From a phage, in assembly GCA_021146325.1 (NCBI GenBank), contig GCA_021146325.1_4321.1: a stretch of DNA of 45,885 nucleotides; one strand, written 5' to 3'. The translations under genes and the position numbers were made by a program. Numbering within the stretch: position 1 is the stretch's first letter; every line of letters starts with the position of its first letter. Under the pieces are notes generated by a model. That model made no database searches and was not told the DNA's origin. It saw only the letters and a list, made by a program, of their open reading frames with translations. Shown one piece after another: positions 98-43,460 of the stretch.

Positions 98-517
<420 letters not shown>

Positions 518-2989: not shown

Positions 2990-3679
2990 ATGGTTATTTG
3001 GTCTTTATTTGATGGTTCAGGGCTGGCTGTGAAAGATTGGGCTGAGGCTTGTCACGAGTGCTACTGTTTCAACTTTGATGAGTCTGACCACGGTAGTTAC
3101 GGGGATTTAAATGCAAAATTTGAACATGAGAACATCACCTACGTTAATGCCTGGATAGATGGCAACTTCGACTTTGATGTGAAGCCTGATATCATTTTAG
3201 CGTTCCCGCCGTGTACGGATTTAGCCGTGAGCGGGTCAAGGCACTTTGAGCGAAAGCGACTGGTTAACCATAACTTCCAGATTGAAGCTGCGGAAACATG
3301 TAAAGTTGCTTTTAACTTGGCTAATAAGTACGAAGTCACATACATGATTGAGAATCCAATCAGCGTACTGTCATCACTCTGGAGAAAGCCTAATAAGACT
3401 TTCCACCCATATGAATACGGAGGCTATTTGCCGGAAGATGATTTACACCCGTTTTTTAGCGACCTAATAAAGCCAAAAGACGCATATCCCAAGAAGACAT
3501 GCATTTGGTATGGCAATGGGTTTAAATGGCCAGAGGCGATTCCTGTGGACGTTAACGATGGATTCTCTGACCAATACAAGAAGCTTGGTGGGAAGAGTAA
3601 GAAGACAAAGGTAATTCGCAGTCTAACTCCTCGCGGTTTTGCAAAAGCAGTCTTCATAGCAAATAGCACGAATAGATAA
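2990..3679 (+). CDS. DNA (cytosine-5) methyltransferase, short orphan type
   Basis: motif I LFDGSG, motif IV FPPCTDLAVSG, motif VI-like ENP, C-terminal LTPRGFAKA; ATG at 2990 has RBS GAGAGG (the ORF track began at TTG 2957). Confidence 0.7.
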   Translation: MVIWSLFDGSGLAVKDWAEACHECYCFNFDESDHGSYGDLNAKFEHENITYVNAWIDGNFDFDVKPDIILAFPPCTDLAVSGSRHFERKRLVNHNFQIEAAETCKVAFNLANKYEVTYMIENPISVLSSLWRKPNKTFHPYEYGGYLPEDDLHPFFSDLIKPKDAYPKKTCIWYGNGFKWPEAIPVDVNDGFSDQYKKLGGKSKKTKVIRSLTPRGFAKAVFIANSTNR

Positions 3680-3706
3680 AGACAAATCCCAAGGATGAGA
3701 TATCAT
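3661..3706 (+). promoter_or_regulatory. promoter cassette copy (IR TAGCACGAATAGATA, 22 bp, TATCAT, CATTGAAACGAAA) overlapping the methyltransferase 3' end
   Basis: IR core 3664..3678; motif supplies codons NSTNR and the stop. Confidence 0.6.
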
Positions 3707-3717
3707 TACTCCATTGA

Positions 3718-3977
<260 letters not shown>

Positions 3978-4915: not shown

Positions 4916-4941
4916 ATAAAGCCCCTTTCGGGGCTTTTATG
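4916..4941. terminator. bidirectional rho-independent terminator (GCCCC-TTTC-GGGGC)
   Basis: hairpin 4921..4934 with T-run on plus and A-run upstream; between convergent genes. Confidence 0.7.
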
Positions 4942-8392: not shown

Positions 8393-8968
8393 TTAAGCGA
8401 TATCTTCTGAGTAACTCCCAGCACTAAATACAGAGCCGCCAACACTTCGATAACCGTATGGCAAACATATTGGGTATCCAGCAGCTACAGTGTTAACAGC
8501 CGACCCGAATGCGTATGAAGCCCTGTTTTGCGCAGACTCCTGCGTCTTTAATCCAGTTGCTTGTGGGGAAAGTAACTGAGCTACACCGCCAGCAGCTAGT
8601 GAGATACCAGCACCAAGAACAGCGGTTGCAATACCACCAGTAAGGAAGAAGCTAGCACCAATGAGCGCCGCACCTAGTACTGTCTGGAATAACCCTCCGC
8701 TTTTTCTTCCTTGAGGTATTGGCATAATACGAATCTCACCAACTGCCTTAAAATCCTTGATACGATGTTCATTAAGGTTCTTCCCGTCAGCAAATATTGC
8801 GAACCTAGTCCTTTGTCCAGCATGGCTTTGCATGAACTCTTTAAATGCTGGAATGTTTACCGATAATGCTCGAAGTGCTTCCGGTACAGACTCCACGCAC
8901 AACTCATGGACTTTCCCGTACCTTCTGCCAAGTGACAAGCCCAGCTTAACCTTAATCAGTCTCTGCAT
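8393..8968 (-). CDS. tail assembly protein I-like
   Basis: position after K; Gly/Ala-rich hydrophobic C-terminal half; likely start MQRLIKV at 8968. Confidence 0.65.
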   Translation of the reverse strand: MQRLIKVKLGLSLGRRYGKVHELCVESVPEALRALSVNIPAFKEFMQSHAGQRTRFAIFADGKNLNEHRIKDFKAVGEIRIMPIPQGRKSGGLFQTVLGAALIGASFFLTGGIATAVLGAGISLAAGGVAQLLSPQATGLKTQESAQNRASYAFGSAVNTVAAGYPICLPYGYRSVGGSVFSAGSYSEDIA

Positions 8969-9720: not shown

Positions 9721-10476
9721 TTAGTTCTGGTTATTCTTGGCTTGCAAGCTAGCAGAGGCACAACCTCCAAATGATAGCTGGTTGTTTTCACCAAACCTTA
9801 ACTTACATGCATCAACAGTTCCGGCGCAGAAATCCAGGCCAGGGTCATCAACCGGATTATTGTCTTTATCAAAGTATCGATTCCCGGCATAATCACAACC
9901 GTTACCACTACGATACCAGCCACGGGAAGCGAAGTAGCATACTGACTGGACTAACCTCGCTGGAATATAAATGCCATCCATATCAATTGGGCTAGATAAC
10001 TCAAAAGAGGCAGTTTTGTAGTCAACCTGCTTTGGACGCTCAATAAAGTAAACCATCTTACGATAATCACCATCTGCAATGCTGCCGTCCTCATTGATAT
10101 TATCCCTGATAGTAACCCAAATTGTCACCTTAGCCTGAACCATGCCATTATACTGACGTATTAGCGCGGAAACAGCCTGGTCTACGTTTGATAAAATTAG
10201 CGTGAGCTTGTTTGCTTTGCCGTCAGAAGTAAGATTAATGCCGCTAATACCGAAAGGCCTGGCTCCATACTCTTCTCCACGGAAAGTGATTGTCTTGGAT
10301 GGTAGTGGCTGGCCGGACGCTTGGGCTTGCATGATTTCTTCAGGCGTGTATGAGATGCTCTCCCCATGAAACCTGTAAACACTTGCCCCGAATTTACTTC
10401 CGTCAACCTCAATAAGCGTAACCACTTCACCAGGAAAAAGTGATTGAAGCTGGTTTTCAAACTTTAAACTTGCCAT
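9721..10476 (-). CDS. minor tail protein L-like
   Basis: 251-aa ORF with C-terminal Cys cluster, between M and K. Confidence 0.75.
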   Translation of the reverse strand: MASLKFENQLQSLFPGEVVTLIEVDGSKFGASVYRFHGESISYTPEEIMQAQASGQPLPSKTITFRGEEYGARPFGISGINLTSDGKANKLTLILSNVDQAVSALIRQYNGMVQAKVTIWVTIRDNINEDGSIADGDYRKMVYFIERPKQVDYKTASFELSSPIDMDGIYIPARLVQSVCYFASRGWYRSGNGCDYAGNRYFDKDNNPVDDPGLDFCAGTVDACKLRFGENNQLSFGGCASASLQAKNNQN

Positions 10477-10514
10477 ATTCTCTCCAATAAAAAAGGCCCT
10501 CTATGGGCCTTAGT

Positions 10515-10865
10515 TTAACTCATTGAAGTAAAAACTTCAGTAAATTGCATGCTAACAGTCTGGACTTCTTTTGTGCTAGGAGTGACGCTGATACTATCCT
10601 GCTGAATAACAAACAGCTTTAATTCACCCTGTGGCGTAGTCCATGCGAAAGGTTTTACAATGTGATCAAAGCAGAAGTTCATTACTGCCTCCCACTCACG
10701 ACCAACGTAGCTAACCGTATACGTCCTTTTGTTTGTCCTGTATCCTCCAGTACCCCTTTGTTCAAAGCCGTTGCCAAAGGATACAATTCTAACGTTGTTC
10801 TTGTTACTAAATAATGATCCACCGTTGAGAACGTTCAAGCACCAGTTAAATGTTTGCAATGCCAT
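10515..10865 (-). CDS. minor tail protein M-like
   Basis: 116-aa ORF directly after the tape measure gene. Confidence 0.7.
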   Translation of the reverse strand: MALQTFNWCLNVLNGGSLFSNKNNVRIVSFGNGFEQRGTGGYRTNKRTYTVSYVGREWEAVMNFCFDHIVKPFAWTTPQGELKLFVIQQDSISVTPSTKEVQTVSMQFTEVFTSMS

Positions 10866-10876
10866 TTAAAATCCTT

Positions 10877-10891
10877 AGGGGCCGAAGCCCC
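10877..10891 (-). other. RNA hairpin GGGGC-UUCG-GCCCC (on the minus transcript) between tape measure and M genes
   Basis: perfect 5-bp stem with UUCG tetraloop; embedded in the shared 16-mer GCCGAAGCCCCGTTAA. Confidence 0.5.
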
Positions 10892-10896
10892 GTTAA

Positions 10897-13878
10897 TTAG
10901 TTGTAACCCCTCAGATAAGCAAAGGCTCTTCCGCCCTGCTGGAATGACTTGCTGATTTCCTCAGCAACGATAACCTTAACTCCAGATTCTATCGCCTTGG
11001 CATCATTTCCGCCACCAATTCCAGAGTTTACGTTAACCGTCACGCCGCCAACACTGACATTCGTGCCACCAACAACTCCACCATTAGCATAGCCAGAGGG
11101 CCCACCAACAGCGCCGCCATTTGCATAACCTCGCATTAGCTTGTACAGGTTCTTAACGCCAATCCTGCTTGTAGCTTCTTTTGTGAATACAAACTCACCG
11201 CGGTGCACAGTTCCAGCAGGTTGATACTTCCCGCCGTCTCCAGTGTAGCCGCCACCAGCAAAGCCAATTGCTGACTTTATTGACTCAAAGGCACTACCTG
11301 CTCCAGTGTCACCACCAAAGCTCTTAATTGTAGATTCAATAGCCTTTACCAAAAGTAGCTGAGTTGCAATTTTCGCAATCATTTTCAGTATGTTTGCCGT
11401 GAACTCCCTGAAATTAGTCTCTCCAGTGGTTACAAGGTTTGTAATCTGGTAGGTAATTCCATCAAAAGCTGCGACAGTCAAATCCTTAGCAATTTGGTTG
11501 AAGTCAGTATACTTCTCAGTTAAGTCAGCAAGCGTTGAAGTTACACCAGCTTGCCAGTCTGACCTTAGGTTATCTTCCTGCCTGTAGTATTCTTTTCTTG
11601 CTTCCAGCAGATTTTGGAAATCAACATCATCTACAGAGCCACCCTTGTTTACCTGATTGGACTCTAGCGCCTGAAGTTCTCCTGCCCTTTGCCGCTCCCT
11701 TTCGGATAGACCCGCAGCAAGTGAAACATTCTTCGCCTCATTGGTAATCTGTATTGTCTTCTTAAGGTTGTCATCAAGTAACTTGTTTGACTTCTCCTGA
11801 AGCACAATCTGGTCACCAAGTTCAGCCTTCTGTTTAGCCTGTTCAAGAATGATATTCTTCTGCGCAAGTAGCTTAGCCTGTGATTTTGTAAGCGTACCAT
11901 CCGCTTGTCTTTGTTCAAGTATTGCAAACTTCGCTTCTTCCTGGAATAACTGCTTTCTTTCATTGCTTATTACATCATTTATCGTTCTGTGCTCTTGTAA
12001 GACCTTTAACTGAGCCTGAAGTGCAAGAACGCCAGATTCATAAGATAAAGTTAAATCCCTTTCTTCTTTTACAGCCTTTTTCCTCTCACTCCTTGCTTTC
12101 TTTATCGTATCATACTCATCGGCAAGAGCCTTCTTCCTTGCTGCAAACTCCTTATCGGTTGATGCATTATTGCCGCTAAGGTTGGTGTTATTGTTGTTCT
12201 CGACATAACCAAGCTCACCCTTCCTGATTCTCGCATCTCGCTCAGCTATGCTTTTTGCTAACTCCTCATTTTGCTTCTTAGCTGCATCAACAATCTTTTG
12301 CTGCTCAGCGATTGCTTCATTGCCTAAATCGCCAAGTCCAGGTATTGACTGAAGTGTCTTGGTTGCTGCTATTGCAAACTCGCCCAATAGGATATCACCG
12401 GAGTTTATTAACGACCTTATCTGCTCAATAGTCCCAGCAACAACGTCAGTTATTAAGTTAAGCGCCCCAAGCGTCCTTTTGCTTATACCATCCCAAATCT
12501 CACTTACAAACTTCCTGAAGCTATTCCATGCGCTCTCAAGAGGGTTAAGGCTTAGTGCTACGTCTGCTAGCCTGTTTTCCATAACGTTAGCGAATAGCTC
12601 AGTAGCTGCGGTTACAGCCTCTGTTTCTCCAGCCGTCTTCCTGATATTCTCAATGTATTTCAATTGCCCAGACTGAAGGAAGTTGAACTGCTTATCGAGT
12701 GCAATCAGACCTTGAATTGGGTCCTTTGTAATCTGATCAAAGTATCCAAGAATAGTTTTCGAGTCTGTTGATGTTACAGTTGCCCATTGTGCTGTCGCCT
12801 TGGTTATCTTATCTATCTGCGTAAGAGTCAGATTACCGTTTGCTACCAGGCTGTTAGCTATCTCCTGGATAAGTCCGCGCGTGGCTAGTGTTGAACTCTC
12901 AATGCTATCAACAACCTGGTTTATTTGCCCTGTTGATGTGATTGTTGAGTTTCCAACCAGCGTTATTGTTGCTGCTAGCTCTCGTGCGTTCCTATCAGCC
13001 TGATAAGCAGCAATACCCAAGGCCCCAAGAGCCAGACCCAGAGTCCCAACAACCGCCGTTAATGGGTTAATGGCTGCCAGTGCAAACCTTGCTGTATTGC
13101 CGATACCACCAAAACTATCCTTAATCTGACCGCCCTGCTGGACTGCTACAAGCCAGATTGGCATGCCGCTAGCAAGAGATGTAACGATATCTGTAATCTG
13201 CGCTGGAAGCTGTCGAATTGCTTGCTTGTATTGACCGGCACTAAGCCCAGACTTAACAAAAGCGGAGCTTTGCTTCTGCAATTGTACCGCAGATGCCTCG
13301 GCAGCCTTTCCAATCCTGTCGATAATCGGTGCAGCCTGGTCACTAACTCCTAGCTGAGCAGCCTTAAGCTGAAGAAGTTCAGTCCTTGTCAGGCTTGCTG
13401 CATTCGCCTCGTTCTCAAGAGATTGAATGAACTTTTGCGCTGCTGTTGTTGCTTTCTCTTTATCTATTGATGCCTGTAGTGCAGCCCTGCCTTCTTCGCT
13501 AAGAGCGGCTTTAGACCTGTTTAGCTTATTGATTTGAGTTTCAATAACAGAGCCAAGCCTGAAGAATTCATCATCAGGAACTATCCCGGATTCAAATGCT
13601 TTGTCCAAATCTGTTGCTGCTTTCTGCAACTTCAGGAATTTAGCAGCGGTTGGGTCTATGGCTTGCTGAAGTGATGCGAAAGATTTGCGCTGCTCCTCAA
13701 GATGCCTTGCAGTGTCCCTTGCTTGAGTCTTGGCTACAAGTTCGGCGTTGACGAAGCTATTAATGCCTGTTGCAGCTTGCTCGTTTGCTTGCCTGAATTT
13801 CTGTAAGGATTGCGTACCCTTATCGACCTGAGCTACGTCGACGGCTAGCGTGATACCAGCAATTTCGTTAGTTGCCAT
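10897..13878 (-). CDS. tail tape measure protein
   Basis: 993-aa ORF, coiled-coil rich, Gly-rich C-terminus, downstream of the G/GT chaperone. Confidence 0.9.
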   Translation of the reverse strand: MATNEIAGITLAVDVAQVDKGTQSLQKFRQANEQAATGINSFVNAELVAKTQARDTARHLEEQRKSFASLQQAIDPTAAKFLKLQKAATDLDKAFESGIVPDDEFFRLGSVIETQINKLNRSKAALSEEGRAALQASIDKEKATTAAQKFIQSLENEANAASLTRTELLQLKAAQLGVSDQAAPIIDRIGKAAEASAVQLQKQSSAFVKSGLSAGQYKQAIRQLPAQITDIVTSLASGMPIWLVAVQQGGQIKDSFGGIGNTARFALAAINPLTAVVGTLGLALGALGIAAYQADRNARELAATITLVGNSTITSTGQINQVVDSIESSTLATRGLIQEIANSLVANGNLTLTQIDKITKATAQWATVTSTDSKTILGYFDQITKDPIQGLIALDKQFNFLQSGQLKYIENIRKTAGETEAVTAATELFANVMENRLADVALSLNPLESAWNSFRKFVSEIWDGISKRTLGALNLITDVVAGTIEQIRSLINSGDILLGEFAIAATKTLQSIPGLGDLGNEAIAEQQKIVDAAKKQNEELAKSIAERDARIRKGELGYVENNNNTNLSGNNASTDKEFAARKKALADEYDTIKKARSERKKAVKEERDLTLSYESGVLALQAQLKVLQEHRTINDVISNERKQLFQEEAKFAILEQRQADGTLTKSQAKLLAQKNIILEQAKQKAELGDQIVLQEKSNKLLDDNLKKTIQITNEAKNVSLAAGLSERERQRAGELQALESNQVNKGGSVDDVDFQNLLEARKEYYRQEDNLRSDWQAGVTSTLADLTEKYTDFNQIAKDLTVAAFDGITYQITNLVTTGETNFREFTANILKMIAKIATQLLLVKAIESTIKSFGGDTGAGSAFESIKSAIGFAGGGYTGDGGKYQPAGTVHRGEFVFTKEATSRIGVKNLYKLMRGYANGGAVGGPSGYANGGVVGGTNVSVGGVTVNVNSGIGGGNDAKAIESGVKVIVAEEISKSFQQGGRAFAYLRGYN

Positions 13879-13915
13879 GTTGTCTCCATAATAAAAAAGC
13901 CACCCCGAAGGATGG

Positions 13916-14544
13916 CTATTTCTTGGCGTTCATCATATCTAAGGCTTTAGCCTCAAGTATTCTGATGTCGTTAAGTACCATTTCGTCATCATCTATTTTA
14001 TAGACTTTGAACAAGAATGGAAGGCAATTATAATCAAGGCCTGTGGCACCGCAAGCCCCTACTCGCCATTGAGTTGACATGGCACAGTACACATCCCAGC
14101 TTTGCATCATTGTTTCATCGAAGTATAACTCTTCAGGCTCATCACCTTCATAATCGGAACGTTTCATTCCGATAGCTTCGAGTTCAGCATCCGTTGGCGG
14201 TGACTGGTATTGTAAGTATACTGCGCGTTTTAGTTTTTTACTCGCTGACCCGCAAGTGCTTTCATGTAGCTATCCATCAACGATGGCACGGCTCCCGGGA
14301 AAAGGTTGGCAAACTCATCTACGTTATCATCGTTAAATGGCTCTTCTAAATCCCAGTCAGAGCAGATTTCGTTAATCAATTCTTTAGTGCTGAAGTTTTC
14401 ACGGTTAAGAATCTCCTGAAGTTCAGATGATTTCTTGTGCTTAACTGTTAGTACCACCTCTGCATCTTCACCATTCGCTAACTGAAACTTAACCGGAAGT
14501 TTAAAGTCAGGCAGCGCCTTAAGTGAAAGTTTAAATTTTGCCAT
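13916..14544 (-). CDS. tail assembly chaperone GT fusion made by programmed -1 frameshift
   Basis: slippery A AAA AAC at the end of the G frame; the -1 frame stays open into ORF 13916..14167. Confidence 0.6.
14230..14544 (-). CDS. tail assembly chaperone G-like
   Basis: 104-aa acidic ORF between major tail and tape measure genes. Confidence 0.7.
   Translation of the reverse strand: MAKFKLSLKALPDFKLPVKFQLANGEDAEVVLTVKHKKSSELQEILNRENFSTKELINEICSDWDLEEPFNDDNVDEFANLFPGAVPSLMDSYMKALAGQRVKN
14233..14239 (-). other. -1 frameshift slippery heptamer A_AAA_AAC
   Basis: minus-strand AAAAAAC just before the G stop codon. Confidence 0.6.
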
Positions 14545-14828: not shown

Positions 14829-14861
14829 TTCATTAATCTCTCATTTCTTTTCGATGAATGA

Positions 14862-14907
14862 ACTATACAGCAATCCGCGACTTAGCCTTTAACAAAAAGT
14901 GCTATCA
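14862..14907 (-). promoter_or_regulatory. promoter cassette copy (IR TAGCACTTTTTGTTA, 22 bp, TATAGT, CATCGAAAAGAAA)
   Basis: IR core 14890..14904. Confidence 0.55.
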
Positions 14908-14933
14908 ATAAAAAACCCTCCGAAGAGGGTTAA
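14906..14933 (-). terminator. rho-independent terminator after the major tail gene
   Basis: hairpin CCCTC-CGAA-GAGGG then TTTTTATTG on minus. Confidence 0.6.
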
Positions 14934-18527: not shown

Positions 18528-18621
18528 TCTTGCTTATTCCTTTTCAGTTAGGTATGTACGAGTCAATTATACACTAGTTTGAGGCCCGCGCAATGATTCT
18601 ATCATGACCAAGCCGAAGGCA

Positions 18622-18650
18622 ATAAAAAACCTCCAGAAGGAGGCTTGTTT
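18622..18650 (-). terminator. rho-independent terminator
   Basis: hairpin CCTCC-AGAA-GGAGG then TTTTTTATTG on minus. Confidence 0.6.
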
Positions 18651-21063: not shown

Positions 21064-22324
21064 TGATTGTTACCTCTGTCTCAATTGAACCTTCACCAAT
21101 CTTAACCTCAGGGGCTAATGCGCGCAAGGTATCTCGTGCTTCGTCTGCATCCATCACGCCGTTAGTGATAAGAGCAGTAATTGAATCAACGTTATTCTTC
21201 AGTATTTCAGCGCGGTCTTTCTTCGATTCCTGAGCTAGAGGGTTAAACTCAACTGACCATTCTTGCTCGGTTGTGATGAACGGGATTAAGAACCCAAGAA
21301 CTGGAAGTAGCTCTTCGTTACGCTTGCGGTCAATCAACTTGTGGAATGTCTCTAGCGCTGTGTTTTGGCTAGATGATAACCCGCCAACGTTACGACCTTT
21401 GAGAATGATTTCATGGATACCGCTCAGAGCAACAATTCTGTCGAACTTCTTATCGAGGAATCCATCAATCCCACCAATATCCGAGTTAAGAACGCTGTAC
21501 TCTTCAGCTTCAGCGTCGATACCAATCGCGCGACCAACGCCAGAGTTATCATCAACCTGGGCAAGCCTCAACCTGGCCGCACCAAAACCTTCCGCGTCGT
21601 CACACAGTTCAGCAAGGCCTTTAGCCTTCCACACCGCCTGCTGCTTGCGGCGCAATAACTGAGTTGCCAGTTTCTCACACGTCTGATAATCCTTGATTGA
21701 TTCAAGCAGGTCAGGAACCAGAACGCTAGCACCCCACCCGTCATTACCGCGACGCAATGAACTAGGAATCTTCTCGCCATCCATAATGTGAACTCGCGAG
21801 TAGTGCACATCATAAAACATGGCGCCACCTTCTGGCGTGATGCGGTACGTTAATGGCTTACCGAATCGCACATTGCGAGGGTTTTCCTCCTTAGTCTGAA
21901 CTCTTACCTGGCTACGCTCATAAACGCGAAGTGATTCAAGTTCAGCGCCTTCACGTACCGGGCTAGTTAGCGCACGATTGTCCTTAACGATAGCCACAAT
22001 TGCAGAGCCGCCAAATAACCTCGCCCATGACCATGCGTCAGAGATTGACTCGTTAACCCTCAGGTAATCCCACCTGGACCAGAATTCACCTTCGTCATCA
22101 ATACCATCGATATGGAAACCTGCGGCGATTGCTGTCTCCGGTATGGTGTCGACGATGCGGCGTACAATTGAGTTTGATGCGTACAGTGAATCAGCGAAAG
22201 GAGGTGTAAGATACGTGTTGCCAAAGTGCCCGTAAATCTCGCTACCATCACTGGGGCCACCAAGAAATTGCGTGGCGTATGAATCTGCTTTTACCATTTT
22301 ATTTGCTCCAATAAAAAGCCCCAT
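21020..22324 (-). CDS. portal protein
   Basis: 434-aa ORF after TerL; probable start is ATG 22297 (MVKADSY, RBS GGAG) because 22317..22332 forms a terminator hairpin. Confidence 0.8.
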   Translation of the reverse strand: MGLFIGANKMVKADSYATQFLGGPSDGSEIYGHFGNTYLTPPFADSLYASNSIVRRIVDTIPETAIAAGFHIDGIDDEGEFWSRWDYLRVNESISDAWSWARLFGGSAIVAIVKDNRALTSPVREGAELESLRVYERSQVRVQTKEENPRNVRFGKPLTYRITPEGGAMFYDVHYSRVHIMDGEKIPSSLRRGNDGWGASVLVPDLLESIKDYQTCEKLATQLLRRKQQAVWKAKGLAELCDDAEGFGAARLRLAQVDDNSGVGRAIGIDAEAEEYSVLNSDIGGIDGFLDKKFDRIVALSGIHEIILKGRNVGGLSSSQNTALETFHKLIDRKRNEELLPVLGFLIPFITTEQEWSVEFNPLAQESKKDRAEILKNNVDSITALITNGVMDADEARDTLRALAPEVKIGEGSIETEVTINETSEDPLEVPADN

Positions 22325-22333
22325 TTAGGGGCT
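22311..22333 (-). terminator. rho-independent terminator closing the small gene 22356..22709
   Basis: hairpin AGCCCC-ATTTA-GGGGCT then TTTTAT on minus. Confidence 0.55.
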
Positions 22334-22355
22334 TAGTTTAGCATAGCTTTTATGG

Positions 22356-22738: not shown

Positions 22739-22784
22739 CTATAAGCCATCCTTGGCGGCGCGTCTTTAGCAAAACGTGCTATTT
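22739..22784 (-). promoter_or_regulatory. promoter cassette copy (IR TAGCACGTTTTGCTA, 22 bp, TTATAG)
   Basis: IR core 22767..22781; its TAG is the TerL stop codon. Confidence 0.55.
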
Positions 22785-24398
22785 GATGCCAGCGAGGCGC
22801 ATCATCCTCGATTTAGGGTCTTCTGCAATGTTCAGTACCAGGTTGACAGCCATTGTCAAACAGTCTATCTGGTCATCGTGAACATGTGAATCATCTGCCG
22901 TGAATGCCGCAATCTCCGTTAGCAAGCCATTAAGCCAAGTAGCAGACTCCGGAAGGATTACGTTACCAGCTTTAATCTGCGGCAATGCACTCATTACGCG
23001 AGTCAGCTTATCGTTATCCGGAACGTACGGCTCGATAGGCGTTCGCATAACCCTTCCGGCTGATTGAATCAGGCCAATACCAGAGGCTTTCTTCTCGATG
23101 ATGATTTTACGAAGGATGCCATCTATCTGATTGGATGCCCTAGCCATCTTCTCGAAATCCAATAACTCAGCCTCGAGCTCAGGAGCTTCAAATTTACCGC
23201 GCCGCTGGTCAAGAAGATAAATCTTCCCATCCTTATAACCCCATAGCTGCATGACGCTAAAGTCGCTGTAACTTTTGGTTGTCATCGCAGTATCAAGGAC
23301 CATAAACCTGTAATCGTACTTAGCTGGCGGTCGCAGAGTGTCGCTAATGCGTTGAAGCCAGTCTACGTTAATCAGGTTGCCGCCAAGTGCTACTGGTTCT
23401 TGCTGATACTGGCTAAGGAATGTATAGCTATCAGAATCCCACATTGCAACTAGGTCGTGAACAGATTCCTTGCCAGGGAAATAGCTATAGTACCTAACAC
23501 CATCACGCTCAATATATTCGCTTGATAGAACGTCATCAATGAATTGCTGCTTAATCCAGTCAGGAAGCGTGTCGACGTAATCCTCAGTTACGAGCGCCGG
23601 TATCTTAATCAAGTCGAAGCTAATACCCATACCGCCATTCATCATGAACCACGTACTATCGTTCACATGAAGGCGCTGTTGGATAGAGATAATCGGCGTC
23701 GCCTTTCCTTTTACGGAGCTCGCCCTACGAGAGCGTATTGTATTCTTTAGCATCACGTGATTGTTAGCGCGAAAAACAGCAGAAAGCATGTCGGCTGGTT
23801 TGTCAAAATCATCTAACAGTACCGCACCACTATACGAATCGGTTATATATCCACCCCTCGCGCCTGTAATTTGGCCGCCAGTGGCTTTAGAGATTGACTC
23901 AAACCTGACCTTGCCATAGTCATCCAGGACCTGTAGCTCATCATCCTTACACGTACCAAACTTACATGGGAACAACTCCTGGAACTCAACAGACTTAATT
24001 AAGTCGCGCACACGCTTGGAGTTACGCTTAACCAGTGAGTCAGCATACGATATATTCAGGTTCCTTACCTTTCTCAACTTAACCATTGAGTAGGCTGGGA
24101 AGTGAATTGAGGCAATCTCTGTTTTTCCGCTACCAGGTGCTATGTTGATGATGGTATCTTTACGCTCACCCGCAATAATCTCATCAATGATTCTGCAAAG
24201 GTATTTATGATGCCAGTTTGGGATGTACCGCTCTCCCTGAGTTACCTGGAACCACACTCGCAAGAATCCCTCGAAGCTATGAGTGGATATCGCCTTAACC
24301 GCCATCTTTTCTGCTGGCGTCATTTCCTCCCAAACTAAATTAGCCATAATTTCACCAATCCAACCATCACGCCAATTAAGAATCCAGTTGTGAAGCAT
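22779..24398 (-). CDS. terminase large subunit
   Basis: 539-aa ORF with ATPase-like N-terminal region, at the head of the morphogenesis block. Confidence 0.85.
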   Translation of the reverse strand: MLHNWILNWRDGWIGEIMANLVWEEMTPAEKMAVKAISTHSFEGFLRVWFQVTQGERYIPNWHHKYLCRIIDEIIAGERKDTIINIAPGSGKTEIASIHFPAYSMVKLRKVRNLNISYADSLVKRNSKRVRDLIKSVEFQELFPCKFGTCKDDELQVLDDYGKVRFESISKATGGQITGARGGYITDSYSGAVLLDDFDKPADMLSAVFRANNHVMLKNTIRSRRASSVKGKATPIISIQQRLHVNDSTWFMMNGGMGISFDLIKIPALVTEDYVDTLPDWIKQQFIDDVLSSEYIERDGVRYYSYFPGKESVHDLVAMWDSDSYTFLSQYQQEPVALGGNLINVDWLQRISDTLRPPAKYDYRFMVLDTAMTTKSYSDFSVMQLWGYKDGKIYLLDQRRGKFEAPELEAELLDFEKMARASNQIDGILRKIIIEKKASGIGLIQSAGRVMRTPIEPYVPDNDKLTRVMSALPQIKAGNVILPESATWLNGLLTEIAAFTADDSHVHDDQIDCLTMAVNLVLNIAEDPKSRMMRLAGIK

Positions 24399-25527: not shown

Positions 25528-25603
25528 TGGTGTTCCGCACTGGACTCGAACCAGTAACTAAGACTTAGGAGGTCTTTGCGTTATCCTGTTACGCCAGCAG
25601 AAC
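25528..25603 (-). tRNA. tRNA-Arg (anticodon CCU)
   Basis: 76-nt cloverleaf folded by hand: 7-bp acceptor stem, D-arm GCGT/ACGC, anticodon loop CUCCUAA, T-arm ACTGG-TTCGAGT-CCAGT, 3' ACCA. Confidence 0.8.
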
Positions 25604-26509: not shown

Positions 26510-26538
26510 TTTCTACCCTCTAGCTGTTTGATATATAA

Positions 26539-26584
26539 ATTATATGGCATCCATGCCTTTGGTGTTTAGCTATTCGTGCTGTTT
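26539..26584 (-). promoter_or_regulatory. promoter cassette copy (degenerate IR CAGCACGAATAGCTA, 22 bp, TATAAT)
   Basis: IR core 26567..26581. Confidence 0.45.
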
Positions 26585-26706
26585 ATTTTATCTTCACGCT
26601 CCTTCCATAGATTCATCAGCTCGAAGTACATCATGGCAACCTCGCCAGTCTTAGCCTCATCCATCATCCGTTTAGCCCACTGGCTTGGTGTTTCGTAGTT
26701 ATCCAT
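26566..26706 (-). CDS. small hypothetical protein ending INSTNS
   Basis: 46-aa ORF not in the ORF track; last codons are supplied by the promoter motif. Confidence 0.35.
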   Translation of the reverse strand: MDNYETPSQWAKRMMDEAKTGEVAMMYFELMNLWKEREDKINSTNS

Positions 26707-27929: not shown

Positions 27930-28001
27930 CCCACTCAGTAGTAATTTAGCTTTCCGATATAAATCCATAGCCACCTCAACCTCATCCTCACCGTACCGAA
28001 A

Positions 28002-28029
28002 GTGGTATGGTAGTAGACTACCATACCAC
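28002..28029. repeat. perfect 13-bp inverted repeat GTGGTATGGTAGT-AG-ACTACCATACCAC at the 3' end of gene 28029..28550
   Basis: read from sequence; on the minus strand the poly-U tail after it is short (UUUCGG). Confidence 0.7.
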
Positions 28030-28550
28030 TATTTAGTCTCCTTAATCATTTCTTGGTATGCGTTAATCATTGATACTGCACCCTTAAGTTCATCACCTTC
28101 AAGACCAGCGACGCTTGGTGATAGTTTCAACAATCGAGCCTTGAACCTTTCAATGGTAGCCGCCTCCTTCTCTTGCTCTGCCTTGCTTCTTGAGCCGGAT
28201 TTTACAGCGCCAGGAACCAGGCTAAGTGATGCGCAGTATGTCTCACTCTCGCCCTCAAAGTCGGTAAAACTAAGTGAGAACCTTGAGCGCACGTCAGCCG
28301 CCTTAATCTCAGGCATTCGGCTTACGGTGTTTGAAACGTATGACGCTTTTAGTTTTGGCATGTGGTATTCACCACCAGGTAGAACCTCCTCACCACTTAG
28401 CGATACGAACGTCTCACGACTCATGCCGAAGTATTGACGAGCAATCATGGTCACAGGGACTGTGCACACTTTGTCTTCTGACTTGAGCGCCTGACTCGCC
28501 ATGTATCGAATGATTTCACCCAAACTTACTGCTTCTTTATGTTCTGACAT
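28029..28550 (-). CDS. hypothetical early protein, first gene of the leftward accessory operon
   Basis: 173-aa ORF. Confidence 0.5.
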   Translation of the reverse strand: MSEHKEAVSLGEIIRYMASQALKSEDKVCTVPVTMIARQYFGMSRETFVSLSGEEVLPGGEYHMPKLKASYVSNTVSRMPEIKAADVRSRFSLSFTDFEGESETYCASLSLVPGAVKSGSRSKAEQEKEAATIERFKARLLKLSPSVAGLEGDELKGAVSMINAYQEMIKETK

Positions 28551-28649
28551 ATTCGTTACTCCTGATTGGTTGCTCTTCGTTAAGATGAAACCATGGTATC
28601 ATGAATATACGCGTTATCAAGTGTTATGTTGTGTTTATATCTGCATTGG

Positions 28650-28935
28650 TTACGCTTTTTGACCTCTCAGCCCAGCTATAGCTGGTGTAATTACCCTGTG
28701 TAAGATTTTACGCGGATTCGCCGGGGGTATGCATATGTATCTATATAGATAAAATTAGTAGTTTTCATAGAAAAACTATCGACCCATCCATACGACCAAT
28801 CTACACCATATACATACATATATATAATAATAATAATAATATAGTAAAAGGTTGATATATATAGATATTATTATGTAACCATTGCGTAATCTAGCGTGGT
28901 AGGCGTGTATGATTCTTCGGAAGCGCACCTCATAT
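28650..28935. repeat. AT-rich non-coding element B, homologous to element A at 2585..2880
   Basis: palindrome CCAGCTATAGCTGG at 28672..28685, (ATA)n, 65-bp block 28815..28879 nearly identical to 2766..2827. Confidence 0.8.
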
Positions 28936-29149: not shown

Positions 29150-29195
29150 GAATAGCACTTTTTGCTAAAGACATTTAGGTATTGCGGAGTTATGG
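29150..29195 (+). promoter_or_regulatory. promoter cassette copy (IR TAGCACTTTTTGCTA, 22 bp, TTATGG)
   Basis: IR core 29153..29167. Confidence 0.5.
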
Positions 29196-29817: not shown

Positions 29818-29981
29818 TGCTTTTACCATCTGAGATAAACTATTTCGATCTGGAAATGATTAGTGCTTACAGCGGAAAGGGTTGGCCTTGCGGGGACTGG
29901 TTTAACGAGGACCTGCTTGAGTCTCACGAGATTATGTTGAAGGCAATTGAGAAGGCCAGAAGAAATAGCACTAATTGCTAA
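29817..29981 (+). CDS. small hypothetical protein ending RRNSTNC
   Basis: 54-aa ORF; 3' end lies in the promoter motif. Confidence 0.4.
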   Translation: MLLPSEINYFDLEMISAYSGKGWPCGDWFNEDLLESHEIMLKAIEKARRNSTNC

Positions 29982-30008
29982 AACTCACCGCCACGGATGG
30001 CGTATATT
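29963..30008 (+). promoter_or_regulatory. promoter cassette copy (perfect IR TAGCACTAATTGCTA, 22 bp, TATATT, CATCGAAACGAAAGAGAG)
   Basis: IR core 29966..29980. Confidence 0.6.
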
Positions 30009-30040
30009 TACTCCATCGAAACGAAAGAGAGCAAGAGATC

Positions 30041-34137: not shown

Positions 34138-34168
34138 TTTTGAACCCTCTGTTGTTTTCGATGTTGTG

Positions 34169-34214
34169 ATTATGCCGCATCTCTACGGCGATTGTTTAGC
34201 AATTCGTGCTATTG
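34169..34214 (-). promoter_or_regulatory. promoter cassette copy (perfect IR TAGCACGAATTGCTA, 22 bp, CATAAT, CATCGAAAAC)
   Basis: IR core 34197..34211; motif supplies the kinase C-terminus INSTNC and stop. Confidence 0.6.
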
Positions 34215-34750
34215 ATCACATCAATTACTATTTCTGTGGTTCTTTTAATATCACCTTCAATAACATCAATATCAATCTCCCTGGCGCAGACACCACTAAG
34301 ATACGACCTACTATCTCCTTCGAAAGTGTATCCATGTCGATGAAGTCTAATTAATGTAACTTCAACACCTTCATCAATTAGTGGCTTAATCTCACTCGCG
34401 AACCCACCATCAGAACAAATGTAGCATCCATCACCAAGTGATTGCGCGAGCCTTTTACCAAAAACATCATCGCCAAAAACTGGCTTCATCACTGATTCGC
34501 TAATCCAAATCATAAATTCACGAACAGTCATTCCACCAAGAAATTCGTGTGGTGATTCTTTGTACCCTCGGTCATCGTAATTATTAATAAATCCATCAAA
34601 CTCATCGCTTGATAGTATTCCTTTTGCAACATTAAACATTGGTGACTTGAATGAAACCTTATCCTTGCAAATTCCAAGATTAACAATGATATCTGCAACT
34701 GTATCTTTTCCAGCACCAGGGGGTGCATTAATGATGATTAACTTTTTCAT
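34196..34750 (-). CDS. P-loop nucleotide or polynucleotide kinase (dNMP kinase-like)
   Basis: N-terminus MKKLIIINAPPGAGKDT resembles T4 dNMP kinase; start taken at Met 17 of the ORF-track ORF. Confidence 0.6.
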   Translation of the reverse strand: MKKLIIINAPPGAGKDTVADIIVNLGICKDKVSFKSPMFNVAKGILSSDEFDGFINNYDDRGYKESPHEFLGGMTVREFMIWISESVMKPVFGDDVFGKRLAQSLGDGCYICSDGGFASEIKPLIDEGVEVTLIRLHRHGYTFEGDSRSYLSGVCAREIDIDVIEGDIKRTTEIVIDVINSTNC

Positions 34751-35255: not shown

Positions 35256-35301
35256 ATTTTGCCTCAATCCTTTGAGGCTTTATTAACAAAAAGTGCTACT
35301 T
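35256..35301 (-). promoter_or_regulatory. promoter cassette copy (IR TAGCACTTTTTGTTA, 22 bp, CAAAAT)
   Basis: IR core 35284..35298. Confidence 0.45.
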
Positions 35302-36433
35302 AGAACATCTCAGGGCGACAAATAAATCGACCAACCTCACCAAAACGCTTATGGTAAACGATTACCGCTGCTTGACGCATTGAGCGCCATCCTCCATTAG
35401 CTGAGTAGGCATCTGGCGCGCCAAGCTGACCATGAACTTCATCGATACCCAGGTTTGTTTCTGTAATTTTCTGACTATGCCAGTGGCCCGAGTGTGTATA
35501 GACATATTCGCTGTTACCGAATAGTTTACGAAAGTCTGTAGCCATTACTGTAAGTCGAGTTTCAGCTTTTCGCATCTGGTGACCATGAGTATAACCAATC
35601 AATGTTGAGCCGAAGCTTGTCATCAGCATTGCTGCTGGGCTTACGTCGACAGTAATTCGCTCCTCGTCTTCATAGAATGCCGCCAATGCTGCACGCAACC
35701 AAACCATCCCAGCTTCGTCGTGATTTCCACTTATTACTTTAATATCAATGATTTGGTGCTTCTCAAGCATCCTTGAAACCGCACGACGCACTGAGCGGAT
35801 TGCTACGTAAACCAATTTAGCATAGCGACTGTCGCTGTCTAAGATATGTCCTGATGCTGGTGTTTTAGCCTCTAGAGAGTCGTAATGCAGAAAATCACCC
35901 CCCAAAACTAATGTCGCATTTCTTGATTTAGGAGCCTTATCTACAGCATAATCAAAGAAGCTATTCATTACCTTCTCTGCTGTTGCAGTGTCGTAGTTTT
36001 CACCGCACTCATGCTTATGAGCCATTGCGCCAATGTGAAGGTCGAAAACAGGATACATAGCCATAGTGTCATCGTCAAAATCAATGTCTGGGCACTCGCT
36101 GGCAATTGCCTTTGGTAAATCAGAACAGAAGGCTTCACGCGCTTGCTCAAGCAGAATCTCAAGGCGTTCATTATCAACGCTTGTCTTAACCCACCGGATT
36201 TTCTCATTCCCTTCCGCATCAATCATGGTAGAAGTGCCTTTTACCATGTATCCATCTGGCACTAGCTTCTTGATACCTTCATTACCATGCCCAACACCAC
36301 TCTTGGCTAACTTGCTGCGACGAAGCTCAACGTTGCGAATGTTCATGCCGTACTTCTCTGCAATTGCCTTGTTAGTCAGGCCATTCTTCAATTCTTCAGT
36401 TAACTGTTCATTTGTAATCTTTGCTACTGCCAT
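35300..36433 (-). CDS. calcineurin-like metallophosphoesterase with N-terminal HTH-like segment
   Basis: motifs DLH, GGDFLHYD, GNHDE, GHQ, GHWH; N-terminal LTNKAIAEKYGMNIRNVELRR. Confidence 0.65.
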   Translation of the reverse strand: MAVAKITNEQLTEELKNGLTNKAIAEKYGMNIRNVELRRSKLAKSGVGHGNEGIKKLVPDGYMVKGTSTMIDAEGNEKIRWVKTSVDNERLEILLEQAREAFCSDLPKAIASECPDIDFDDDTMAMYPVFDLHIGAMAHKHECGENYDTATAEKVMNSFFDYAVDKAPKSRNATLVLGGDFLHYDSLEAKTPASGHILDSDSRYAKLVYVAIRSVRRAVSRMLEKHQIIDIKVISGNHDEAGMVWLRAALAAFYEDEERITVDVSPAAMLMTSFGSTLIGYTHGHQMRKAETRLTVMATDFRKLFGNSEYVYTHSGHWHSQKITETNLGIDEVHGQLGAPDAYSANGGWRSMRQAAVIVYHKRFGEVGRFICRPEMF

Positions 36434-37721: not shown

Positions 37722-37759
37722 TTTCTTTCTCTCTTTGTGTGTTTCGTTTCGATGAGTTG

Positions 37760-37805
37760 ATAATACACCAACTCACCAATTCGTCTTTGGAAATTCGTGC
37801 TATTT
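37760..37805 (-). promoter_or_regulatory. promoter cassette copy (IR TAGCACGAATTTCCA, 22 bp, TATTAT, CATCGAAACGAAA)
   Basis: IR core 37788..37802; its TAG is the VRR-NUC stop codon. Confidence 0.55.
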
Positions 37806-38219
37806 TCTTATCATCTCTGCGAATGCCGCAAGAAAACCCTCTCTTCCATAAGCCACCGCTGCGAAACCGCCTGATTCACTTACGCTTTTTAGGAATGACT
37901 TTTGCTCATTGCTAACTGGGCTTGCTTGCGTTTTACCAGCCCTCTTTAACTCTATGGCGCCAAATGGATAACCGCCACGCAATGACTCAGGTATCAGAAA
38001 TAAGCAGTCTGACACACCTTTGAGAAGCCCCTTGGCTTGGTCTTTTCTTGCTTGACCAATGCTCTTTTTATTTTCGTTAATCGTGTGCCAGTAAACAATC
38101 TGCGGATAGTTGTATTTCACCCAATCAGAGCAGAAGATTTGTTCATCGTCTTCCTTTGGGCATGACTTCACCGGTCCGCCATAGAACTCGAGGTAATCAC
38201 CTTTGTCTGTGATTTTCAT
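37800..38219 (-). CDS. VRR-NUC domain nuclease
   Basis: SDCLFL...AIELK PD-(D/E)xK pattern; immediately after the helicase gene. Confidence 0.55.
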   Translation of the reverse strand: MKITDKGDYLEFYGGPVKSCPKEDDEQIFCSDWVKYNYPQIVYWHTINENKKSIGQARKDQAKGLLKGVSDCLFLIPESLRGGYPFGAIELKRAGKTQASPVSNEQKSFLKSVSESGGFAAVAYGREGFLAAFAEMIRK

Positions 38220-41394: not shown

Positions 41395-41440
41395 TATAAT
41401 AACAGCCATAGAACCCATTGTTTAACAAAAAGTGCTATTG
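41395..41440 (-). promoter_or_regulatory. promoter cassette copy (IR TAGCACTTTTTGTTA, 22 bp, ATTATA) driving the helicase gene
   Basis: IR core 41423..41437, only 14 bp from the divergent HTH gene start. Confidence 0.5.
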
Positions 41441-41450
41441 AGGTAATGAG

Positions 41451-42455: not shown

Positions 42456-43375
42456 ATTACGATAAGAATGAAGTTATACCTAAGATGGCCGGATTGTGGA
42501 AATCATTTTATGTAAAGGAACTTGGTTGGAATGATAGACACATAAGTAAGAAGCACGGACCATGCCCATGCTGCTTTGGCACTGACAGATTCAGATTTAC
42601 CGACGAAATAGGCAGTGAAAAAGGAAATGGCGCGGCAGTTTGTTCGAAATGCGGAAGTGACTCCGGTATAGGATGGGTCATGAAGTGCACCGGATTGTCC
42701 TTCGCCGATTCAGTAAATTTGCTTGGTGACTGGCTGAACTTAACACCAATTGAGGTTATAGTTAAAGCAAACAAGCAAGCCTCGAGAACTAAGCGTTACA
42801 AAATGGGCGCTCAAGTCGACCATGAGAAAGTCCTGGAGGTTATGGAGAGAACTAAGAGAGTGGAATCGAGTCCACTCACGACATACGAGGGTATTTATGA
42901 CGCGTTTGGTTTTGATGTTGGTATAGCTAAAAATGGTTCAATGATTCACGCAATCCCTTGTTCGATGGTTTATGAAGATGGGCTTAGTGATGAGTTCTGT
43001 AACGTAATGTTTATTGATGAGGATTCAAATGTTAAGTTCCTTGCTGGTGATTACACTCGTGATTCTGTTTCCGTTATTGGTTCTAAGCAGGATGATAGTT
43101 ATACTTATGTTGTTGACAATTATATTGATGGCATACGTGTTCACCTTGCTACTGGTGGGCGCGAAGTGTTTGTTGCTTTCTCCTGTTACAATATGGAGAT
43201 GGTTATCCACCGCGACAAGTCAAGGAAGTTCAGAATTGCTTGCCGTGATTCTGATAGCGATATACTCGCTGTTGCTGACGATAGGGGTGTTGATGTTGTA
43301 GTTCCTAATGACGGTGAGTCATTTAAAACAGGCATACGAAAGAAAGTGTACAAAGCAAACGACTTGCTAAACTAA
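42452..43375 (+). CDS. DNA primase (zinc-binding plus catalytic domains)
   Basis: N-terminal Cys4 zinc-finger-like CPCCFG...CSKCG, 307 aa; upstream of the helicase in the replication region. Confidence 0.7.
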   Translation: MNYDKNEVIPKMAGLWKSFYVKELGWNDRHISKKHGPCPCCFGTDRFRFTDEIGSEKGNGAAVCSKCGSDSGIGWVMKCTGLSFADSVNLLGDWLNLTPIEVIVKANKQASRTKRYKMGAQVDHEKVLEVMERTKRVESSPLTTYEGIYDAFGFDVGIAKNGSMIHAIPCSMVYEDGLSDEFCNVMFIDEDSNVKFLAGDYTRDSVSVIGSKQDDSYTYVVDNYIDGIRVHLATGGREVFVAFSCYNMEMVIHRDKSRKFRIACRDSDSDILAVADDRGVDVVVPNDGESFKTGIRKKVYKANDLLN

Positions 43376-43398
43376 CCTCCTTCGGGAGGTTTTTTATT
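43374..43398 (+). terminator. rho-independent terminator after the primase gene
   Basis: hairpin CCTCC-TTCG-GGAGG then TTTTTTATTG. Confidence 0.7.
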
Positions 43399-43423
43399 GC
43401 CTGAAAGATGGTAGAATGAATTT

Positions 43424-43438
43424 TGGCAATTAGTGCTA
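43424..43438. promoter_or_regulatory. orphan copy of the IR motif (TGGCAATTAGTGCTA) just upstream of the tail fiber gene
   Basis: IR present but no correctly spaced -10 in either direction. Confidence 0.3.
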
Positions 43439-43460
43439 CTTTACAAATGGAGACTTTACA

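Follow-up and report, generated by a model that had tools for sequence, protein, structure and literature searches.

Why should a phage place the same short sequence, able to fold into a UUCG-capped hairpin, between two different pairs of genes inside its transcripts? The window, the whole 45,885-nt stretch of DNA analysed here, belongs to a coliphage of the Drexlerviridae, subfamily Braunvirinae (Rtp-like/T1-like), as BLAST of both hairpin regions indicates; the best matches, TR3, CY1, ES and phiA2-1, are 88-92% identical. The minus strand is the coding strand for all genes around both copies. The initial annotation had drawn attention to a 16-mer, GCCGAAGCCCCGTTAA, at 541-556 and 10881-10896, and both positions hold. 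The 16-mer occurs exactly twice, on the plus strand of the window, with no third match there at up to three mismatches, and the exact identity runs one base further, to 17 nt (540-556 and 10880-10896). By our own arithmetic, about 0.1 exact 17-mer pairs, direct and inverted together, are expected by chance per 45.9 kb. The other exact repeats of at least 16 nt in the window are terminators, a promoter-associated repeat, a poly-Q coding repeat and an AT-rich repeat. On the minus strand, both copies pass from a stop codon through 5-6 A/U-rich nucleotides ending in C and then into GGGGC-UUCG-G. Both contain C-UUCG-G, a UUCG loop closed by a C-G pair, and no further copy of the hairpin is found in the window at one mismatch.

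The second copy is the intact one. On the minus strand, the tape measure protein (TMP) gene (ORF 10897-13878) ends in a TAA at 10899-10897 followed by the 5-nt linker TTAAC at 10896-10892, the two together occupying 10892-10899. The stem-loop GGGGC-UUCG-GCCCC comes next at 10878-10891, with its 5' arm at 10891-10887, its loop at 10886-10883 and its 3' arm at 10882-10878. The start region of the following gene (10863-10877) comprises the Shine-Dalgarno sequence AAGGA at 10876-10872, the 6-nt spacer TTTTAA and the ATG at 10865-10863. A single T separates the stem from AAGGA, and 12 nt lie between the end of the stem and the ATG. The hairpin covers −26 to −13 relative to the start codon, and its loop fits the earlier placement of GGGGC-UUCG-GCCCC about 20 nt before it. 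Structure prediction, which the initial annotation had proposed as a check, gives a perfect stem of five G-C pairs with a 4-nt loop and −11.0 kcal/mol, the sole element of the predicted centroid structure. The gene downstream encodes a Phage_min_tail (lambda M-like) minor tail protein (Pfam E=3.5e-17).

The first copy lies between an ERF-family recombinase gene, identified by its ERF Pfam match, and a gene for an SSB-like protein. The erf frame (ORF 558-1250) ends on the minus strand in a TAA at 560-558 with the 6-nt linker TTTAAC at 557-552 (552-560 together). The degenerate stem-loop GGGGC-UUCG-GCCAC follows at 538-551 (5' arm 551-547, 3' arm 542-538), and a 20-nt A-rich leader with the Shine-Dalgarno sequence GAGAG at 529-525 then leads to the ssb ATG at 517-515, all within 515-537. 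A minus-strand A at 539 creates a G.A mismatch that breaks the second pair, and fold prediction leaves only 3 bp at −4.4 kcal/mol, no better than shuffled sequence. The earlier description of this copy as the weaker one is borne out (−4.4 against −11.0 kcal/mol). Since close relatives carry an intact GGGGC-N4-GCCCC at the same position, the C-to-A stem mutation of the window is derived. The assignment of the two downstream genes as ssb and M also stands, through Pfam for M and through the annotation of relatives for ssb: the SSB-like protein (ORF 98-517, C-terminus DDIPF) has no Pfam match, and its relatives are annotated as ssDNA-binding. The 3' part of ssb (109-198, minus strand) encodes a run of 23 glutamines, written as CTG/TTG-complement repeats, ahead of an acidic FNDDIPF tail; the Q tracts of relatives' SSB-like proteins are shorter or interrupted.

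The two junctions sit in similar surroundings. A promoter-like site, AAGACA-16-TATCAT with a 21-nt ATAGCAC...TAAA repeat, found by promoter scan and by its repeat family, lies immediately upstream of erf at 1239-1285 on the minus strand and marks the start of the erf-ssb segment. The segment is closed by an intrinsic terminator from the terminator scan, AAAGCCCC-UUUC-GGGGCUUU followed by UUUUAUUG, at 70-89 on the same strand. The order is thus promoter-like site, erf, hairpin, ssb, terminator. At the other locus it is terminator, TMP, hairpin, M, terminator. There the scan places one minus-strand intrinsic terminator directly upstream of the TMP gene at 13898-13917, where the TMP-M segment starts, and another at 10493-10511, 3 nt past the M stop, where it closes. 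No further gene separates ssb or M from the intrinsic terminator behind it. As a separate observation, an 8-bp terminator hairpin, AAAGCCCC-GAAA-GGGGCTTT, is common to 70-89 and 4918-4937, inverted and with about 28 nt of identity, and both of these terminators stand at convergent gene junctions.

A search for copies in related phages, also proposed in the initial annotation, finds the hairpin kept at both junctions. The TMP-M spacer of eleven Braunvirinae genomes measures 31 nt and hardly varies, and the hairpin is its sole consensus structure; the erf-ssb consensus fold of relatives likewise consists of the hairpin and nothing else. At TMP-M, TR3 and CY1 show one compensatory change from G-C to U-A, the loops of the eleven genomes are TTCG, TTCT or TTTG, the linkers are A/U-rich in all relatives (TTAAC, TAATT, TAAAT, TTATC, TTAAT) and TAAGGA is invariant. 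Close relatives have TGCG or TTAG loops at erf-ssb, and the Braunvirinae overall use UUCG, UGCG, UUAG, UUCU, CUCG, UACG, UUUG and UUAU. A covariation test on 23 distinct Braunvirinae sequences, both sites pooled, found 93.9% of pair cells paired and three compensatory cells, with a score matched by 2 of 500 column shuffles. A pattern scan of IMG/VR with TAACGGGGC-N4-GCCCC returned more than 120 contigs, mostly unrelated, together with a DTL contig carrying both copies. The TMP-M hairpin is confined to the Braunvirinae.

These comparisons bear on the shared sequence itself. Rtp has exactly two hairpin copies, with loops that differ between its two sites (TTCG and TGCG). Because the sites within one relative usually differ in the loop, the two copies evolve independently rather than in concert, and the exact 16/17-mer identity seen in the window is partly coincidental.

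Junctions from the rest of the Drexlerviridae were retrieved from IMG/VR by protein anchoring. Stems of unequal length fell out of register in a single MAFFT alignment, and each junction was therefore folded separately, with alignment reserved for the Braunvirinae. Almost all erf-ssb junctions with a spacer of at least 29 nt carry a GC hairpin. The Braunvirinae have GGGGC/GCCCC and the T1 clade GGGCGGC-UUCG-GUCGCCC; other clades have GGGGGC-GAAA-GCCCCC, GGGCGG-GAAA-CCGCCC, GGGGCG-GAAA/GCAA/GUAA/AUAA-CGCCCC, GGGGCG-CUAGC-CGCCCC or AUGCCC-UUCG-GGGCAU. Nine of the 12 erf-ssb spacers tested fold better than their shuffles, at p about 0.01 or lower. The hairpin is missing in places: some relatives have short erf-ssb spacers that lack it, and in the T1 clade TMP and M abut with no spacer at all (GGAGGCTAATAATG).

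Mobile genes have entered both junctions. In some relatives the two hairpin sites are precisely where HNH_3 homing-endonuclease genes have been inserted: between TMP and M in contigs L142 (960-1500) and L172 (129-599), and between erf and ssb in L144 (948-1504). In L142 and L172 a promoter-repeat cassette takes the place of the hairpin, which is therefore dispensable. In L144 the HNH gene stands before ssb and after the old ssb leader, and a GGGGC-UUAU-GCCCC hairpin is kept 7 nt past the erf stop; here the hairpin has stayed with the 3' end of erf. A further U-less GC hairpin, GGGCGC-GAGA-GCGCCC, occurs in T1 (L159) at 8927-8942, between the stop of the small-terminase gene, 6 nt away, and the annotated ATG of the large-terminase gene, 2 nt away, and may represent a third junction with this class of element. 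In the window, the fold census of intergenic gaps finds no such hairpin in the TerS-TerL spacer.

Do these hairpins act in RNA or in DNA? The insertions mark the sites as recombination-active, and a palindromic stem would form in DNA too, so a cruciform or single-stranded DNA hairpin serving replication, recombination or homing might be proposed, as might persistence with no function. The loops speak for the message. By our own count, about 9 of 11 clade-level tetraloops belong to the UNCG or GNRA families in the mRNA sense, and none does in the antisense. This bias in the sense strand points to an RNA rather than a DNA element. That the hairpin always has the same orientation and place with respect to the stop codon also argues against a role in DNA, and the independent clades that keep the structure with different sequences argue against neutral persistence. 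We regard both possibilities as extremely unlikely.

An RNA hairpin just past a stop codon at once suggests a terminator, here a weak or conditional one, or a pause site, that would lower transcription of the distal gene. Copy 2 does have the GC-rich stem-loop of an intrinsic terminator, with five G-C pairs and a 4-nt loop, and this stem-loop lies right past the stop in the manner of the roughly 15 canonical terminators of the window. A UUUU begins 6 nt past its stem, and a few relatives have a real U-run at erf-ssb (GCGCCCC-UUUUUU in L309, GUUUU in L295). However, the tails after the stem, UAAGGAUUU in copy 2 and ACAGCAUUA in copy 1, contain no adjoining U-tract, and none adjoins the stem in most clades; most junctions have 0-2 U within 9 nt past it. 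The terminator scan of the window lists neither copy, the ARNold-based annotation of SU57 marks no terminator at TMP-M, and the T1 record annotates none between erf and gp27. The canonical terminators of the window have U-runs and share the tail UUUUUAUUGG, which is absent from both hairpins. The arms have the opposite polarity as well: the 5' arms of the U-less hairpins are G-rich (48 G to 17 C over clade representatives), whereas those of terminator-like hairpins in the window, Rtp (L158) and T1 (L159) are C-rich (92 G to 211 C, n=63). Spacing does not separate the two groups, as window terminators also lie 3-8 nt past stop codons. On this evidence a terminator or pause function seems quite unlikely.

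The fold census of intergenic gaps in the window found no other simple U-less hairpin behind a stop codon; the remaining U-less folds are promoter-repeat modules, or terminators whose U-tract is paired to an upstream A-tract. A further structure, at 28001-28030, has 13 unbroken base pairs and a loop of 4 nt, AGTGGTATGGTAG-TAGA-CTACCATACCACT, predicted at −20.3 kcal/mol; it is without a U-tract and adjoins the end of ORF 28029-28550. Among the terminators, those at 10476-10511, 14903-14932, 18617-18646, 22300-22334 and 43365-43402 share the tail UUUUUAUUGGAG, so that the U-tract runs straight into the GGAG Shine-Dalgarno sequence of the next gene.

The stem begins 5-8 nt past the stop codon in 42 of 43 unique junctions, while the distance from stem to ATG ranges from 7 to 26 nt across junctions, and in longer spacers the surplus bases always lie 3' of the hairpin. 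This contrast bears directly on the proposal that the hairpin belongs to the translation initiation module of the downstream gene, keeping the ribosome binding site single-stranded and blocking the sliding of ribosomes that have terminated upstream. M and SSB would then be translated independently of the gene before them. The copy 2 stem ends 1 nt before the invariant UAAGGA, and other clades look alike at ssb, with CGCCCCG-AU-AAGGA-N6-AUG and CCGCCC-CAU-AGGA, the stem 13 nt from the ATG; the T1 clade, which has no hairpin at TMP-M, has the overlapping, coupled arrangement GGAGGCTAATAATG instead. Yet the constant interval is the one to the upstream stop; that to the start varies. Four clades with longer spacers put the extra bases between hairpin and Shine-Dalgarno sequence, and in L144 the hairpin stays with erf though a different gene comes next. 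An A/U-rich spacer alone would also keep the Shine-Dalgarno sequence open, which leaves a maximally stable GC tetraloop stem unexplained. We regard a role in initiation as unlikely.

The initial annotation had offered three possibilities for the hairpin: a processing site, a stabiliser or a translational control structure. The comparison of relatives supports the general idea of a selected stem-loop on the mRNA strand between co-transcribed genes, exchanged in other clades for hairpins that differ in sequence but match it in stability. As to the choice among the three, a constant stop distance and a variable start distance speak for a stabiliser, or decay barrier, at the end of the upstream frame rather than for control of the downstream start.

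Several known classes of RNA signal were considered and rejected. A T7-type RNase III site needs a double-stranded stretch of at least about 20 bp, and the element has only 5 bp and no larger consensus structure. A larger structure formed with the flanks is contradicted by consensus folds that hold the hairpin alone. A lambda-type nut site would call for a GNRA-like pentaloop and a boxA; the loop is a variable tetraloop, there is no CGCUCUUA-like boxA, and the 5' flank is only A/U-rich. A stimulator of stop read-through or frameshifting was dismissed since read-through would add 12-16 codons and give no fusion to the downstream frame. Rfam returned nothing at the gathering threshold in the window except one tRNA and nothing meaningful around either copy at E up to 10. 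The single tRNA gene, tRNA-Arg(CCU), lies at 25528-25603 on the minus strand, and tRNA-Arg(CCU) has been reported for other T1-like phages (PMC4070988).

A specific factor might nonetheless recognise the hairpin, as an operator (for example in SSB autoregulation), as a site for a phage endoribonuclease or as a nut-like antitermination hairpin. A GGGGC/GCCCC stem preceded by C recurs at two unrelated junctions throughout the Braunvirinae, each hairpin lies one gene ahead of a terminator, and the genome holds a great many terminators inside operons that polymerase must read through (PMC11447400). The comparison of clades weighs against such a factor: loops vary freely within the Braunvirinae and stems differ between clades, so no surface for sequence-specific contact is conserved. 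UUCG loops have been described as binding no protein (PMC4371310). A nut-like role meets the lack of a boxA-like sequence and of a GNRA-like pentaloop, and the mismatch between two copies per genome and more than ten terminators; moreover, reading past the terminator behind ssb would carry polymerase, harmfully, into a convergent gene. For RNase III, five base pairs are far too short. We consider recognition by a specific factor very unlikely. A bolder version, in which hairpin and A/U-rich 5' linker together form a family-wide cis signal for a dedicated factor, is slightly less probable still. That factor could read a site-specific processing signal and so release monocistronic ssb and M mRNAs with the hairpin as their cap or, in a nut-like manner, modify RNA polymerase to pass the next internal terminator of the T1-like 'transcriptons', and the constant GGGGC/GCCCC stem and the arm polarity would on that view serve recognition instead of being by-products.

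What the two junctions and their relatives present is a stable, conserved structure at a cistron boundary within one transcript, free of terminator features. The reading we prefer is that the hairpin is a non-terminating mRNA stem-loop acting as a decay barrier between two cistrons, to which we give a probability of about 0.42. From the structure, its conservation and covariation, its position behind the stop, the missing U-tract and the tetraloop bias, all of them observed, we infer the effect on mRNA decay. Ribosome geometry would place a stem 5-8 nt past the stop just outside the mRNA entry channel of the ribosome decoding that stop, so that ribosomes translating the upstream gene would not have to unfold it. 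The hairpin would thereby uncouple the lifetimes of the two cistrons. It may act as a barrier to the 3'-to-5' exonucleases PNPase and RNase II entering through the distal cistron, preserving the upstream cistron in the manner of malE-malF. It could also impede RNase E working from the 5' direction, or shield the distal mRNA as a 5' cap once the A/U-rich linker has been cut, in the manner of papBA. The RNase E motif RN|WUU (PMC5927463) finds a full match in the copy 1 linker (AA|UUU) and only the +2 U in that of copy 2 (AA|UUA); by inspection it is missing from the linkers of about half the clades, which makes the 3'-barrier version the better supported.

In E. coli, hairpins that protect 3' or 5' ends are documented at boundaries inside operons (PMC5927463). 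The precedent of C(UUCG)G hairpins in T4, together with the report that they bind no protein (PMC4371310), fits a generic structural role. Several points count against a decay barrier. Some lineages do without the hairpin (T1-clade TMP-M, short spacers, L142 and L172), the window's own copy 1 is crippled by its stem mutation, there is no evident stoichiometric reason for TMP and M mRNAs to differ in lifetime, five base pairs make a short barrier next to REP elements, and the terminators of the genome share the short spacing behind stop codons. The literature searched holds no transcript 5' or 3' ends or half-lives for T1-like phages.

As a second, conserved class of RNA structure between cistrons, the hairpins would bring a post-transcriptional level into the regulation of T1-like phages, which the reannotation of TLS lists as an open question (PMC11447400). 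Of regulatory features that paper describes only 21-nt repeats and many internal terminators (PMC11447400), and no mention of a hairpin or stem-loop of the present kind was found in the T1-like phage literature examined. The element is distinct from the terminators in tail and arm polarity and stands 5-8 nt past the erf stop family-wide. Its kind is well known, and its presence throughout the family at erf-ssb is a modest new observation; no new principle is involved. It would be a small natural case of a decay-insulating hairpin that lends itself to testing, and parts of this sort are of use when synthetic operons are designed.

The repeats of the window can be described alongside. A repeat AAATAGCAC-N3/4-TTGCTAAAG is present in many copies across both strands (1221-1285, 2914-2932, 3661-3724, 14844-14908, 22762-22788, 26521-26585, 29151-29169, 29963-30031, 34151-34215, 35283-35303, 37742-37806, 41417-41441 and 43417-43446). 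It often forms part of a module of about 65 nt that continues into a −35/−10-like pair and CATCGAAACGAAA, and it corresponds to aaATAGCACnnnTTGnTAAAA, a 21-nt repeat described in TLS, T1 and Rtp (PMC11447400). Two pairs of AT-rich direct repeats, the members of each about 26 kb apart, are also present: 2766-2845 and 28818-28897 (80 nt, 79% identity), and 2569-2621 and 28631-28683 (53 nt, 72% identity). Both pairs are intergenic, between divergent genes, and may be origin-like or regulatory regions.

A comparison with known systems places the hairpin among familiar elements while setting it apart from each of them. Like the intrinsic terminators of T1-like phages, it is a GC-rich tetraloop hairpin a few nucleotides past a stop; unlike them, it has no adjoining U-tract, a G-rich 5' arm and no UUUUUAUUGG tail. 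Like the lambda nut hairpin, it has five GC pairs right past a stop and upstream of a terminator, but it carries a variable tetraloop in place of a GAAAA/GAAGA pentaloop, lacks boxA and lies in mid-operon rather than near the promoter. Extra-stable C(UUCG)G tetraloop hairpins were reportedly described in phage T4 mRNA by Tuerk et al. in 1988. The window element has the same UUCG loop, C-G closing pair and short GC stem, and it too is self-contained and lies between phage genes. It differs in belonging to another phage family, in being tied to two specific junctions and conserved family-wide, and in having relatives that use other tetraloops, so that the loop is not essential. C(UUCG)G hairpins, first found in T4 mRNA, are regarded as self-contained structures that bind no protein (PMC4371310).

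Two further parallels are cellular. The papBA message shares the succession of upstream gene, A/U-rich linker, hairpin, short distal gene and 3' terminator (PMC5927463). Unlike in papBA, cleavage in the linker here would leave 5-6 unpaired nucleotides 5' of the stem. The malE-malF element, a REP palindrome, measures roughly 35 nt, whereas the present element is a minimal 14-nt hairpin. Despite this difference in size, both are stable, conserved, non-terminating intergenic structures that stand right after a cistron in a polycistronic mRNA (PMC5927463).
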